DNA from: Thermodesulfobacteriota bacterium
GTDB taxonomy: Bacteria > Desulfobacterota_D > UBA1144 > Nemesobacterales > Mycalebacteriaceae
Direction: 5' to 3'
Assembly: GCA_965205855.1 (NCBI GenBank)
Contig: OZ242184.1
Span: forward strand, 352,001-416,000
Length of the DNA stretch: 64,000 bases
Part shown: one piece after another, positions 19,879-26,779 of the stretch
Layout of the letters: each line of letters starts with the position of its first letter
Numbering within the stretch: the first letter of the stretch is position 1
Made by a program: the position numbers and the translations under genes
Notes under the pieces: model-generated
What the model saw: only the letters and a program-made list of their open reading frames with translations
Told to the model about the DNA's origin: nothing
Database searches by the model: none

Positions 19879-22464
<2,586 letters not shown>

Positions 22465-22467
22465 GTT

Positions 22468-25023
22468 ATGCAGGACTATTCGCGATTTCTCAGCCGTTGT
22501 TCAAGTTGGGAGCAGTTTTCGGATTACACAGGCTCCCTGAAAACCGCGAAAGAGAAGGGCGACCTTTTTGAAAAACTGGTTTGGACATATCTGACAGTCC
22601 ATCCCGAATACAGGACAAAGCTTTCCAATGTTTGGTTGCTCCGCGATGTTCCGCAGGCGGTTACCCGCAAGCTCAATCTTCCGTCTGCCGACGAGGGTAT
22701 AGACCTGATTGCGCAAGCTCGCGGCGGCGGGTTCTGGGCGATACAGGCAAAATACAGGTCTGACAAAGACAAAGCGCTGAACACCCGCGACCTTGCGAAG
22801 TTTTTGCACCTTTCTTTTACCCATTGTAACGGCATAACCCACGGCGTTATTGCGCACACGACTTCAAAGCCCGTACGGAAAAAAAATTTGCTTGGTAATG
22901 TGGTTGAAATCGGTCTTTCGCGCTGGCAGGAACTCTCGCCCGAAGGGTGGGACGCAATCCGCGCGAAGGTGGCGAACAAGGTTCACAATCTCGTGCCGCG
23001 CAAACCGAGGAGACATCAGAAGGCGGCAATCGCCAACATACGCAAGCATTACGCGGAAGAAAAAAAGCCGAGGGGCAGGATGATTATGCCTTGCGCGTCC
23101 GGAAAAAGTCTCACGGCGTTCTGGGCAGCGCAAGCCCTTAAAGCGAAGACGGTTGTTCTTGCCGTGCCGAGTCTTTTGCTCGTAAAGCAAAGCGTCAAAG
23201 ACTGGACTCGCGAGTATCTCGCCCATAATGAGACACCGGACTGGCTTTGTGTTTGCAGCGATGAGACTGTTGGCAAGATAGAGGACAGTTTTGTTTCAAA
23301 CATATACGAAACGGGGCTTCCGACCACAACGGACGCAAAAGAGATAGCAGACTTTCTGAGAAAACGCTCATCTGTGCCGAGGGTGATTTTTACAACCTAC
23401 CAAAGCAGTCCCCGGCTTGCGGAGGCGGCGCGCAAGTCCGGGCGCGAGATAGACCTCTGCATACTGGACGAAGCGCACAAGACAGTCGGGGAAAAAGATT
23501 CCGCTTTTGCGACCTTGCTTGACAACAGGAAACTGAAAATCAAAAGGCGGCTTTTTATGACTGCCACAGAAAGGGTTCTTCACGGAAAAAACGATGAAGT
23601 TCTGTCAATGGATGACGAGCGGACTTACGGCGGGTGTTTTTATCAACTCACATTCAGGCAAGCGATTGAGGACGGCATTATATGCGATTATAAGATTCTG
23701 ACTCTTACGATTTTGGACGCGCAGGTACGCGAGATTGTTGAGAGAAACAGACTTGTGAAAGACAGATTGCTTGCTCAGCAGACCCGTGAGTCCGCGCCGC
23801 TTGCCGCGGGAATTGCGCTCGGCAAGGTGTTCAACGAACACTGCATTAAACACGCGGTTTCATTTCACAAAAGCATAAAATCCGCTACCGATTTCAAATC
23901 CCAGCAGGAAGACCTTTCAAAGTCTCGCGTTATCAAAACAAAGATTGAGAACTTTCATATTTCAAGCAATCTGTCCGCCGGAGAGCGAACGGTTGTGATG
24001 CGCGATTTTGAGCAATCCCAAAGGTCTCTTATAACAAACGCCAGATGTTTGACCGAAGGGGTTGATGTTCCCGCGATTGATTGTGTTCTTTTTGCAGATC
24101 CCAAGCACAGCGTTATTGACATTGTTCAAGCGGCGGGAAGGGCGATGCGTCCGAAAGAGGGAAAAGAGAGGGGCTACATACTCCTGCCGATTGTTGTGCC
24201 GGACGGGATGAGTGTTGAGGAATTTGCGGAAACAACCCCGTTCAAAAAGGTTGCAAGTCAGATTACCGCGCTGTCCACTCAGGACGAGAGAGTCAAGGAA
24301 GAGTTCAGGGCGATTACCGAAGGGAAAAGGCCAAGCGCGCAAGGGCGGCTTTTTTCAATCAGCGGCGATGTTCCCGCCGGAATGAATATCAGTCTCAAAC
24401 AGTTTTCCGATGCGATTGAAAGCAAAATTTGGGAAAAGGTTGCCAAAGTTAATTGGAGGGTTTTTAAAGAAGCGCGGGATTATGCGCAGTCGTTGAGACT
24501 AAAAAGTGCAACGGAATGGCGCGAACACACAAAGTCATCCGATTTTCCGTCAGATATTCCTGTTGATCCCAACCGAACATACAAAGACAAAGGATGGGTT
24601 AATTGGGGAGATTGGCTTGGGACTGGAAATATAGCTAATTTTCTCAAAGAGTACCGTTCTTTTAAAGAAGCGCGGGATTATGCGCAGTCGTTGCAACTAA
24701 GAAGTAGAACGGAATGGCGCGAACACACAAAGTCATCCGATTTTCCGTCAGGTATTCCTGTTGATCCCTACCGAACATACAAAGACAAAGGATGGGTTAA
24801 TTGGGGAGATTGGCTTGGGACTGGAAATATAGCTAATTTTCTCAAAGAGTACCGTTCTTTTAAAGAAGCGCGGGATTATGCGCAGTCGTTGAGACTAAAA
24901 AGTGCAACGGAATGGCGCGAACACACAAAGTCATCCGATTCTCCGTCAGATATTCCTGTTGCTCCCGACCAAATATACAAAGACAAAGGATGGGTTAATT
25001 GGGGAGATTGGCTTGGAAAATAA
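22468..25023 (+). CDS. Mrr-like restriction endonuclease + SF2 (DEAH) helicase + C-terminal tandem 66-aa repeats; Type ISP-like but without methyltransferase
   Basis: Nuclease motifs KGDLFE...DEGIDLIA...AIQAKY. Helicase motifs PRRHQ, MPCASGKS, ILDEAH, MTAT, CLTEGVDVP and VQAAGRAMR. C-terminal repeats end in GWVNWGDWLG. Confidence 0.88.
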   Translation: MQDYSRFLSRCSSWEQFSDYTGSLKTAKEKGDLFEKLVWTYLTVHPEYRTKLSNVWLLRDVPQAVTRKLNLPSADEGIDLIAQARGGGFWAIQAKYRSDKDKALNTRDLAKFLHLSFTHCNGITHGVIAHTTSKPVRKKNLLGNVVEIGLSRWQELSPEGWDAIRAKVANKVHNLVPRKPRRHQKAAIANIRKHYAEEKKPRGRMIMPCASGKSLTAFWAAQALKAKTVVLAVPSLLLVKQSVKDWTREYLAHNETPDWLCVCSDETVGKIEDSFVSNIYETGLPTTTDAKEIADFLRKRSSVPRVIFTTYQSSPRLAEAARKSGREIDLCILDEAHKTVGEKDSAFATLLDNRKLKIKRRLFMTATERVLHGKNDEVLSMDDERTYGGCFYQLTFRQAIEDGIICDYKILTLTILDAQVREIVERNRLVKDRLLAQQTRESAPLAAGIALGKVFNEHCIKHAVSFHKSIKSATDFKSQQEDLSKSRVIKTKIENFHISSNLSAGERTVVMRDFEQSQRSLITNARCLTEGVDVPAIDCVLFADPKHSVIDIVQAAGRAMRPKEGKERGYILLPIVVPDGMSVEEFAETTPFKKVASQITALSTQDERVKEEFRAITEGKRPSAQGRLFSISGDVPAGMNISLKQFSDAIESKIWEKVAKVNWRVFKEARDYAQSLRLKSATEWREHTKSSDFPSDIPVDPNRTYKDKGWVNWGDWLGTGNIANFLKEYRSFKEARDYAQSLQLRSRTEWREHTKSSDFPSGIPVDPYRTYKDKGWVNWGDWLGTGNIANFLKEYRSFKEARDYAQSLRLKSATEWREHTKSSDSPSDIPVAPDQIYKDKGWVNWGDWLGK
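24463..25020 (+). repeat. Intragenic tandem repeat, 198-bp unit x ~2.8 (starts at 24463, 24661, 24859)
   Basis: TTTAAAGAAGCGCGGGATTATGCGCAGTCG recurs at exact 198-nt spacing; unit 1 and unit 2 differ at 7 nt. Confidence 0.97.
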
Positions 25024-25051
25024 GCCGCTTTCAATTTCCGATTGGGGGCTA

Positions 25052-26779
25052 TCAGATTTTAAATTGGACGCTAATCAATAATCCCACAACCCTTTCCGCC
25101 GCTTTCTCAATCTCAACATTCTCCGTCTTATCCGTCAGGCGGTTCTTAACCTCAACCACTCCGTTTTTGAGTCCTCTCGGTCCCGCGATAATCTGAAACG
25201 GAATTCCAATCAGCTCGCAGTCTTTGAATTTTACGCCCGCGCTTTCGTCCCTGTCGTCAATCAGGGCGTCTATGCCCGCTTCAATGAGTTTTTTATAGAT
25301 GCCTTCTGCGACCGAAACTGTTTGCTCATTGCCCATGCTTGTTGGAATAACGGCGACTTCAAAAGGCGCTATGGCGGGCGGAATAACCATTGATTTGCCG
25401 TCGTTGTTCTGCTCTATTGCGGCGGCGGCGGTTCTGCCTATTCCTATTCCGTAACATCCCATTACAAACGGCTTCTCGCTTCCGTCCGAATCGGTGAAAG
25501 CAGCCTCCATCGCCTCGCTGTATTTTGTTCCGAGCATAAAAACATGGCCAACCTCTATGCCCCTTATTGAAGACAGTTTTCCGCCTTCGCACGACGGGCA
25601 GCCGTCCCCGTCCGCTGCGACACGGATGTCAAGAAATGCGTCCGGGGTGAAATCCCTTCCTTCGCTCACATTTGTTATGTGCGCGTCTTTTCTGTTAGCG
25701 CCCGCAACGGCATTTGTCATTGCGCGAATTGAAATGTCCGCAACTATTTTGACTTTCTCCTTCATTCCCACGGGCCCGCTGAAACCCACCGCGCCGCCGC
25801 AGACGCGCATAATCTCTTCCGCATTCGCAAGTTCGGCGGTTTCTGTGCCGAGCGCCTTTTTCAGTTTTGTCAGACTGAGTTCCCCGTCTCCGCGCACAAG
25901 AGCGGCAACCGTCCCGTCGTTTGTTGAAATAATCATCGTCTTTATCAAATCGGACGGACTTACTCCGAGAAATTTTGCGACATCCCCGACCGTTTTCATC
26001 CCCGGAGTTTCAACCTCACTGATTTCGCCGGGGTTTGCTCCAGTTTTTTCCGTCTCCGCTTCCGCTACCCCCGCAAGTTCGAGGTTTGCCGCATAGCCGC
26101 ACTTTTTACATGTCATCACAACATCCTCGCCCGTGGGAGCGAGAACCATGAACTCGTGCGACTCGCTTCCGCCGATGTTTCCCGTGTCCGCAAGCACGAC
26201 ACGAAACTCAAGGCCACAACGTTTGAAAATTCTGTTGTATGCGTCAAACATTTTTCCGTATGAGATTTTTGCGTTCTCAACAGAGGAGTCAAAGCTGTAT
26301 GCGTCCTTCATTATAAATTCGCGCGCGCGCATTATGCCGAAACGGGGGCGGATTTCATCCCTGAATTTTGTCTGTATCTGATAGAAATTCACGGGAAGGT
26401 CTTTGTAGGAACGTAAATCTCTCGCGGCTAGGTCGGTGATTATCTCCTCATGCGTGGGGCCTATGCAGAAATCCCTGTCCGCTCTGTCGTGCAAACGCAG
26501 GAGTTCCTTGCCGTAATGGTCCCACCTGCCGCTTTTTTTCCAGAGCTCGGCGGGAAGAACGGTCGGAAGAAGCGCCTCAATCGCGCCCGAAGTGTTCATC
26601 TCTTCACGGACTATTTTTTCTATTTTTCTCAAAAATCGCAGACCGAGCGGCAGATAGTCGTATATTCCCGCCGCGACTTTTCTTATCATCCCGGCGCGCG
26701 CCATAAGTTTGTGGCTTGCGACTTCAGCGTCCGCGGGGTCGTTCTTGAGAGTCGGTATGAAATATGAGGAAAATCTCAA
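25052..26779 (-). CDS. proS: Proline--tRNA ligase (with editing domain)
   Basis: GPTHEE, FRDEIRPRFGIMRAREF, IEVGHVF and MGCYGIG motifs. Start is probably TTG 26779 (MRFSSYF); the ORF extends to ATG 26827. Confidence 0.97.
   Translation of the reverse strand: MRFSSYFIPTLKNDPADAEVASHKLMARAGMIRKVAAGIYDYLPLGLRFLRKIEKIVREEMNTSGAIEALLPTVLPAELWKKSGRWDHYGKELLRLHDRADRDFCIGPTHEEIITDLAARDLRSYKDLPVNFYQIQTKFRDEIRPRFGIMRAREFIMKDAYSFDSSVENAKISYGKMFDAYNRIFKRCGLEFRVVLADTGNIGGSESHEFMVLAPTGEDVVMTCKKCGYAANLELAGVAEAETEKTGANPGEISEVETPGMKTVGDVAKFLGVSPSDLIKTMIISTNDGTVAALVRGDGELSLTKLKKALGTETAELANAEEIMRVCGGAVGFSGPVGMKEKVKIVADISIRAMTNAVAGANRKDAHITNVSEGRDFTPDAFLDIRVAADGDGCPSCEGGKLSSIRGIEVGHVFMLGTKYSEAMEAAFTDSDGSEKPFVMGCYGIGIGRTAAAAIEQNNDGKSMVIPPAIAPFEVAVIPTSMGNEQTVSVAEGIYKKLIEAGIDALIDDRDESAGVKFKDCELIGIPFQIIAGPRGLKNGVVEVKNRLTDKTENVEIEKAAERVVGLLISVQFKI

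Follow-up and report, generated by a model that had tools for sequence, protein, structure and literature searches.

What can three near-identical protein repeats do at the end of a nuclease-motor protein? This question is raised by a 64,000-nucleotide (nt) stretch of a Thermodesulfobacteriota genome (assembly GCA_965205855.1, contig OZ242184.1, positions 352,001 to 416,000 of the forward strand; this whole stretch is hereafter called the window), which carries on its + strand, at 22468..25023, an open reading frame (ORF) of 851 amino acids plus stop, in which an Mrr-type nuclease and a superfamily 2 (SF2) motor are followed by three tandem units of the INT_rpt family. An earlier reading made from the letters of the window (the sequence-only reading) had seen in the differences between these units a possible modular specificity code like that of transcription activator-like effectors (TALEs), in which recombination homogenises the scaffold, contact residues diversify, and gain, loss or shuffling of repeats could retarget the enzyme. 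The reading that we favour, and that we place somewhat on the probable side, is that the array is a C-terminal targeting or tethering arm, bearing a variable contact surface on a recombining scaffold, of a Type ISP-like nuclease-motor that has no methyltransferase.

Three units and two variable patches

Tandem Repeats Finder (TRF) detected a single array with a score of 1026, which spans 24462-25016 and has 2.8 copies of a 198-nt period with 94% matches. Its units begin at positions 24463, 24661 and 24859, in the reading frame of the ORF and at its 3' end, and each is built of a 53-residue core and a 13-residue linker, with unit 3 forming the C-terminus of the protein. TRF together with codon comparison delimits unit 1 at 24463..24660 (66 amino acids), unit 2 at 24661..24858 (66 amino acids) and the terminal unit 3 at 24859..25020 (54 amino acids), all on the + strand. 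Units 1 and 2 have one and the same 13-codon linker. Units 1 and 2 differ at codons 12 (R/Q, two nt), 14 (K/R), 16 (A/R, two nt), 31 (D/G) and 37 (N/Y), and units 1 and 3 at codons 28 (F/S), 35 (D/A), 37 (N/D), 38 (R/Q) and 39 (T/I) and, synonymously, at codon 53 (GGG/GGA). The last is the sole synonymous change, the other 12 nt changes, spread across 10 codon comparisons, being non-synonymous, and site 37 has three states among the three units (N, Y and D). Codon-by-codon comparison thus reproduced exactly what the sequence-only reading had listed.

The differences fall into two patches. Patch 1 comprises codons 12-20 (24496..24522 in unit 1, 24694-24720 in unit 2 and 24892-24918 in unit 3, + strand), that is, a turn and the first turns of helix 2, and the sites within it that are hypervariable across the family are 16, 17 and 20. 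Patch 2 comprises codons 34-39 (24562..24579, 24760-24777 and 24958-24975, respectively, + strand), within which P36 is conserved. The absence of synonymous changes, taken alone, is weak evidence: for 10-12 changes, with 21-28% synonymous expected at random, its probability is P = 0.018-0.077, and we agree with the earlier judgement that about 10 changed codons are suggestive only. Clustering is the stronger evidence. In unit 2, five of the seven differences lie inside 14 nt (P about 0.001), and in unit 3 four of six lie inside 13 nt (P about 0.017), the spans having been picked post hoc in both cases. Moreover, five of the nine changed positions are within the eight sites, of 53, that are hypervariable family-wide (hypergeometric P = 0.002).

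As to the source of these changes, a diversity-generating retroelement was considered and rejected, since the 12 changes have no adenine specificity (A is the unit-1 letter in about half of them) and since a template is lacking, the genome containing no further copy of the repeat. Likewise, gene-conversion donor copies sought elsewhere in the genome were not found, the only matches being the three units themselves; in this 1.4-Mb single-contig genome the repeat is confined to the nuclease-helicase gene.

Near-identical tandem units of 198 nt are hard for short-read assemblers, and the relatives of this gene hold six to nine units; both points would suit the view that the differences are assembly or sequencing artefacts, or that the array is a collapsed longer one. 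We give this view practically no chance of being right. Logan contigs of four runs (two studies) were placed on 23800-25600 and no alternative letters were seen over this region. In one run (X1, which like X2 is possibly from the source sample), the flank contigs had depths of 506 and 479; the depth was 490 for a 73-nt record found in unit 2 alone, about 950 for records belonging to two units, and 1400 for a 34-nt record belonging to all three. These are contig depths and so a rough measure, and their 1x/2x/3x pattern relative to the flanks is that expected for exactly three units.

Variable sites on a conserved scaffold

The C-terminal tail scores 25.3-25.5 bits (E 1.5e-5 to 1.8e-5) against Pfam family PF14882 (INT_rpt, 'Integrase repeat unit', formerly PHINT_rpt), one bit short of the curated gathering score of 26.5 bits. 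Homology to the family appears clear because of transitivity via homologous stretches and annotated phmmer matches: of 106 homologous three-unit stretches, 69 reach E <= 1e-3 against PF14882, the best one 9.2e-14, most of the 3,168 matches of a word-indexed protein search carry PF14882 together with the same helicase architecture, and the nearest Atlas clusters bear the name INT_rpt. An exhaustive search matched the tail to 6,062 clusters at 50% identity. All three units of the window contain W19, P29, I32-P33, P36, Y40, G44-W45 and D50..L52-G53, columns that are at least 90% conserved in 150 units, and they share with other INT_rpt-tailed SF2 helicases and nuclease-helicases the signature F..AR......L.LK...EW...........P.DIP..P...Y...GW...GDWLG.

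The variable sites were identified in a DNA set of 704 units from 153 reading frames (145 non-duplicate arrays at 101 loci). Per-column entropy, proposed beforehand as a check, is highest in the core at sites 16, 17, 20, 34, 35, 37, 38 and 39. Two variable patches on a homogenised scaffold recur both in the genus orthologues and across the family; where the ranges 12-16 and 35-39 were first given for them, the family set is 16, 17, 20, 34, 35 and 37-39. At these hypervariable sites the mismatch within arrays is 0.85-0.98 of that between arrays. Other variable sites (6, 21, 22, 27, 28 and 30) are more alike within an array, with a ratio of 0.45-0.76, and non-patch variable sites overall have ratios of 0.45-0.8. 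Because these ratios differ, the scaffold can be said to evolve in concert whereas the patches do not. Read as eight-site words, the 2,648 unique units yield 2,616 different ones; the residues, mostly polar, amount to an effective alphabet of 6-14 per site.

Covariation, read together with structure prediction, suggests that the two patches form one surface. For a single unit (unit 1, with 150 aligned units), AlphaFold2 gave a mean predicted local distance difference test score (pLDDT) of 93.9 and a predicted template modelling score (pTM) of 0.77, with helices at 2-10, 16-23, 36-39 and 48-52. In this model helix 2 opens with turns that carry sites 16, 17 and 20 on the side opposite the conserved W19 and Y/H22, and sites 34-39 lead into the short third helix. 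The proximity of the patches was probed via covariation (direct coupling analysis, DCA) in 2,083 gap-free units; among 1,225 pairs of sites, 16-48 ranked 3rd, 16-20 4th, 37-48 19th, 20-37 42nd and 16-37 50th, which suggests that both patches meet around site 48. For the three-unit tail (106 aligned stretches) the pLDDT was 93.5 and the pTM 0.56, confidence being lowest in the linkers, and this model suggests beads on a string, not a rigid superhelix. Structure searches, including Foldseek, found no solved structure resembling the unit fold, whether TALE, zinc-finger or helix-turn-helix (HTH), and the only structural matches were to the same repeat in giant-virus helicases (BFVD, query-normalised TM-score 0.63-0.73). 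Basic residues are conserved at sites 5, 9, 14, 24, 28 and 41, and the mean core charge across the family is +2.4, positive in 74% of units; both would fit a polyanion as ligand.

The rates of change at the patches were measured as pN/pS, where pN is the number of non-synonymous and pS that of synonymous differences per site, in a split-half design: one half of the scaffold codons served to select the unit pairs, and the other half supplied the synonymous rate. An earlier estimate of 3-10 for young pairs was inflated, the pairs having been selected on the same synonymous sites that served as yardstick, and was superseded by this design. For the youngest pairs of all arrays the patch ratio is 1.6-1.7 (12-16 independent pairs, P about 0.008); it reaches 2.6-2.7 in the youngest pairs of the genus to which the window belongs (8 pairs, 4 arrays, P 0.0002-0.002) and is 1.04-1.10, not significant, in the youngest pairs from outside it. 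With a local yardstick the patch ratio is 1.84. The next age bin gives 1.2 and old pairs, which are saturated, give 0.9-1.0; the family-wide patch ratio is 0.9-1.25, and that of the scaffold is about 0.2-0.4. The patches thus evolve near the neutral rate family-wide, and a higher rate is seen only in young pairs, mostly of this genus. The rate check proposed by the sequence-only reading thus had a divided outcome, positive for young pairs of the genus and close to unity for the family.

The protein is an ordinary member of a very common, unstudied architecture. Mrr_cat_2, ResIII, Helicase_C and the repeats are common to most top matches, and nuclease and helicase occur in 78 of 120 proteins among the matches listed. 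The 266 proteins that we collected have 4-17 units, compared with 3 here; 102 have the nuclease-helicase module, 35 a helicase only and 129 neither. Eight of the last class were scanned, of which seven contained an integrase, an SNF2 or ResIII helicase, or a helicase plus methyltransferase, and one contained no named partner. Elsewhere, INT_rpt is fused to Integrase_2, SNF2 and Methyltransf_8 proteins. In 82 of the 129 proteins without the nuclease-helicase module fewer than 80 amino acids lie outside the array, and many of these may be fragments. A table row in PMC8078820 lists PF14882 among families without known structure, and the available part of the GMT-island preprint does not mention the repeat.

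INT_rpt units were also seen on large viral contigs of 146-501 kb (L047-L060), one of which, of 379 kb, has two separate loci, and two of which, from the same sample, have the repeat at an identical coordinate. Within the window, the linker together with helices 1 and 2 (24835-24945, amino acids 789-825, and the equivalents in units 1 and 2) matches GIDA_C_1st at 27.5-28.2 bits against a cutoff of 24.7, and some homologues match about 25 profile positions of Exonuc_X-T_C/ExoI_C. Such matches are too short for interpretation and could reflect a short shared motif or a compositional artefact.

Orthologues, unit number and possible exchange between units

Among 120 genomes of the phylum, the repeat is found in 5, all of one genus. 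An orthologue of the window gene is present in four of the five other members of this genus, at 67-73% identity, in frames of 1039, 1189, 1248 and 1263 amino acids. These orthologues have 6, 8, 9 and 9 units as compared with 3 in the window gene, in keeping with the proposal that repeats are gained and lost between related genomes. As in the window, the gene follows gyrB in genomes G003 and G004, and it is located elsewhere in G001 and G005; in G002, where gyrB is present, no orthologue was found. The patch words are not collinear between the orthologues of eight and nine units, as judged by eye.

A patch allele has been kept across species. Codons 34-39 of unit 3 are identical at 17 of 18 nt to those of units 1 and 8 of the G001 orthologue, the remainder of these units being 73% identical to unit 3, and between genomes patch 2 is on average 54% identical. 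The six-residue word of unit 3 at patch 2 occurs three times among the 2,648 unique units, each time within the genus. Because of this match of 17 in 18 nt despite a diverged scaffold, the four patch-2 differences of unit 3 from unit 1 came as one inherited block and do not count as four fresh mutations, which weakens the count of 10 independent changes in the window. The same comparison supports homogenisation, within its own genome, of the scaffold around patch 2 of unit 3, as the sequence-only reading had supposed recombination to do.

Signs of exchange between units are also seen in single orthologues. In units 1-8 of the G005 orthologue (L005), codons 21-32 are nt-identical in all eight, and words of patch 1 and patch 2 are differently combined among the units, a pattern that suggests short-tract exchange between units. 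In the G001 orthologue (L006), the non-adjacent units 1 and 8 differ by one synonymous and one non-synonymous change; because just these two changes separate them, a recent duplication or conversion of a whole unit, patches included, would account for the pair.

The host protein and the possible role of the array

The first approximately 610 residues of the protein are the Mrr nuclease and SF2 motor of Type ISP enzymes such as LlaBIII and LlaGI. The PADLOC model REase_MTase_IIG, which represents Type IIG restriction-methyltransferases, matches amino acids 19-611 with E 6e-101 over profile positions 11-645 of 1646; among solved structures, LlaBIII (4xqk) matches with E 8.4e-66 over its residues 27-651 of 1578, and LlaGI (5ffj) with E 2.5e-49 over the same part of the protein. 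On the + strand, the nuclease domain, Mrr_cat_2, lies at 22597..22869 (amino acids 44-134; Pfam PF13156, E 2.3e-15, and the alignment with 4xqk), and its GIDL...AIQAK stretch has the same letters in the aligned LlaBIII. It is followed by the N-lobe of the motor (23002..23568, amino acids 179-367, ResIII/DEAD, with GKS at amino acid 212 and DEAH at amino acid 334) and by its C-lobe (23860..24153, amino acids 465-562, Helicase_C, with QAAGRA at amino acid 554). The protein thus resembles Type ISP enzymes over about 590 N-terminal residues, where its Mrr nuclease and SF2 translocase are homologous to theirs, and in the presence of SF2 motifs I, II and VI. It differs from them in what comes next, the module of coupler, methyltransferase and target-recognition domain (TRD) being absent, INT_rpt units beginning at about residue 666, and the C-terminus being the array and not a TRD. 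In Type ISP enzymes, according to the available part of PMC4666363, a single chain holds Mrr nuclease, SF2 ATPase, coupler, methyltransferase and DNA-recognition domain in this order, and the repeats therefore occupy the recognition end.

The ORF starts 3 nt past the stop codon of gyrB, on the same strand (22464-22468), and its downstream neighbour proS is convergent, at a gap of 28 nt. No methyltransferase family was found past residue 611 in Pfam, NCBIfam and PADLOC scans, and neither adjoining gene (gyrB upstream, proS downstream) encodes a methyltransferase. Because the protein has no methyltransferase-TRD module and no adjacent methyltransferase gene, these scans imply that it cannot be a self-contained restriction-modification enzyme. 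In three genomes of the same order (G014, G026 and G022), the nuclease-motor half matches frames of 1483-1647 amino acids (L009-L011) at 32-34% identity; these are probably full Type ISP/IIG enzymes with a methyltransferase, and INT_rpt was not found in these three genomes. A weak terminator-like hairpin lies over the stop codon of the ORF, in the gap before proS (25009-25027); such sites are fewer here than in shuffles, and it may be due to chance.

From these observations we propose the following working model. The units are INT_rpt mini-domains, in each of which four short helices would pack around aromatic residues and prolines, and their array would be a C-terminal arm that targets or tethers a nuclease-motor like that of Type ISP enzymes, one with neither methyltransferase nor classical recognition domain. 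Each unit would combine a conserved scaffold with one variable surface, formed by sites 16, 17 and 20 and the segment 34-39. Unequal crossing-over and gene conversion between the 198-nt units would alter their number and homogenise the scaffolds within a genome, the patches remaining different between units. The patches would be a contact surface and the ligand most likely DNA, nucleic-acid binding being suggested by the position of the array and by its fusion partners; the array may then hold the enzyme on its substrate, with the SF2 motor pulling on the DNA and the Mrr nuclease cutting it. In its weak form, which asks only for a recombining scaffold that bears a variable binding surface, the mechanism put forward by the sequence-only reading is plausible, whereas its strong form, a TALE-like code, is unsupported.

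Several points weigh against this model. The changes at sites 14, 28 and 31 strike positions conserved in the genus, and because of this conservation they may be slightly deleterious. Three young pairs of units (units 1-8 of L006, 3-7 of L069 and 2-3 of L017) have no patch differences at all, which indicates duplication or conversion of whole units. Outside the genus the patch pN/pS is 1.0-1.26, as unconstrained surface sites would give, and the core of unit 1 in the window has a net charge of 0 as opposed to the family mean of +2.4. A literature search for the repeat found no functional study, experiment or solved structure.

The most serious rival, which we regard as possible though on balance doubtful, is that the patches are surface loops under the weakest constraint in a repeat that is structural or acts as a spacer, the array then being a non-specific tether or flexible arm whose variation carries no specificity. 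The near-neutral family-wide patch ratio would be expected under this explanation, as would the almost unique eight-site words and the broad alphabet at each site, and fast neutral sites would also equalise mismatch within and between arrays. It accounts less well for the codon-by-codon retention of a patch allele in species whose scaffolds have diverged, for the raised ratio in young pairs of the genus, for the clustered differences among the window's own units, and for the coupling of patch sites 16, 20 and 37 with one another and with site 48. Hypervariable repeat surfaces with raised non-synonymous change are typical of protein-recognition repeats, and on this resemblance the variable surface could instead bind a protein or other non-nucleic-acid ligand (a phage protein, a partner enzyme or, as an autoinhibitor, its own motor), with the array acting as a sensor, a role that variable repeat domains have in other defence proteins. 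That the units of the window are not basic, and that the gene is patchy in the phylum, being limited to one genus, would suit such a role, which we nevertheless consider very improbable: the conserved basic positions and the mostly positive core charge of the family are a better match for a polyanion, the repeat is fused to DNA enzymes, and no partner gene is adjacent.

The remaining rival is a code of the TALE or zinc-finger kind, in which each unit reads a short run of bases, unit order spells the target, and shuffling retargets the nuclease-motor. A TALE repeat has about 34 residues (33-35) in two helices, which stack into a superhelix; variation is limited to two adjacent residues with a small alphabet, and one repeat binds one DNA base. 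INT_rpt arrays resemble TALE arrays, and also zinc fingers, ankyrin and leucine-rich repeats, in consisting of tandem in-frame modules with a homogenised scaffold, variation gathered at few surface sites and a copy number altered by recombination. In other features INT_rpt arrays differ from TALE arrays: the period of INT_rpt is 66 amino acids, its unit is a four-helix globular domain plus linker, eight hypervariable sites with near-unique words take the place of a two-residue code, and no TALE structure is among the Foldseek matches of the unit. As judged from sequence and predicted fold, the common features are general ones, and those that define TALE arrays, among the ones compared (period, fold, number of variable sites and, above all, alphabet), are absent. 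A code of this kind would explain why the array is modular, in frame and variable in copy number, why it is located where Type ISP enzymes carry their recognition domain, why the variable sites are at the start of helix 2, following a helix-turn, and why almost all fusion partners of the repeat are DNA enzymes. It is distinctly unlikely all the same, as the residue alphabet is not small, the modest pTM and uncertain linkers of the three-unit model point to beads on a string, zinc-finger and HTH structures are likewise missing from the fold matches, the window gene has just three units, and the patch words of the longer orthologues are not collinear.

What is new for INT_rpt, a very common family found in bacteria, phages and giant viruses and fused to nucleases, helicases, methyltransferases and integrases, is which sites vary, together with evidence that they form one surface; the concerted evolution of the scaffold, with patch alleles persisting across species; and the placement of an array where Type ISP enzymes hold their DNA-recognition module. 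A bolder reading of these features, which we think unlikely, is that INT_rpt arrays are a natural modular DNA-recognition system, in which each unit would read a short DNA element via sites 16, 17, 20 and 34-39, the array would replace the TRD in Type ISP-like nuclease-motors, and gain or loss of units and exchange of patches would retarget cutting. If this were true, a very common and unstudied family would be a programmable binder.

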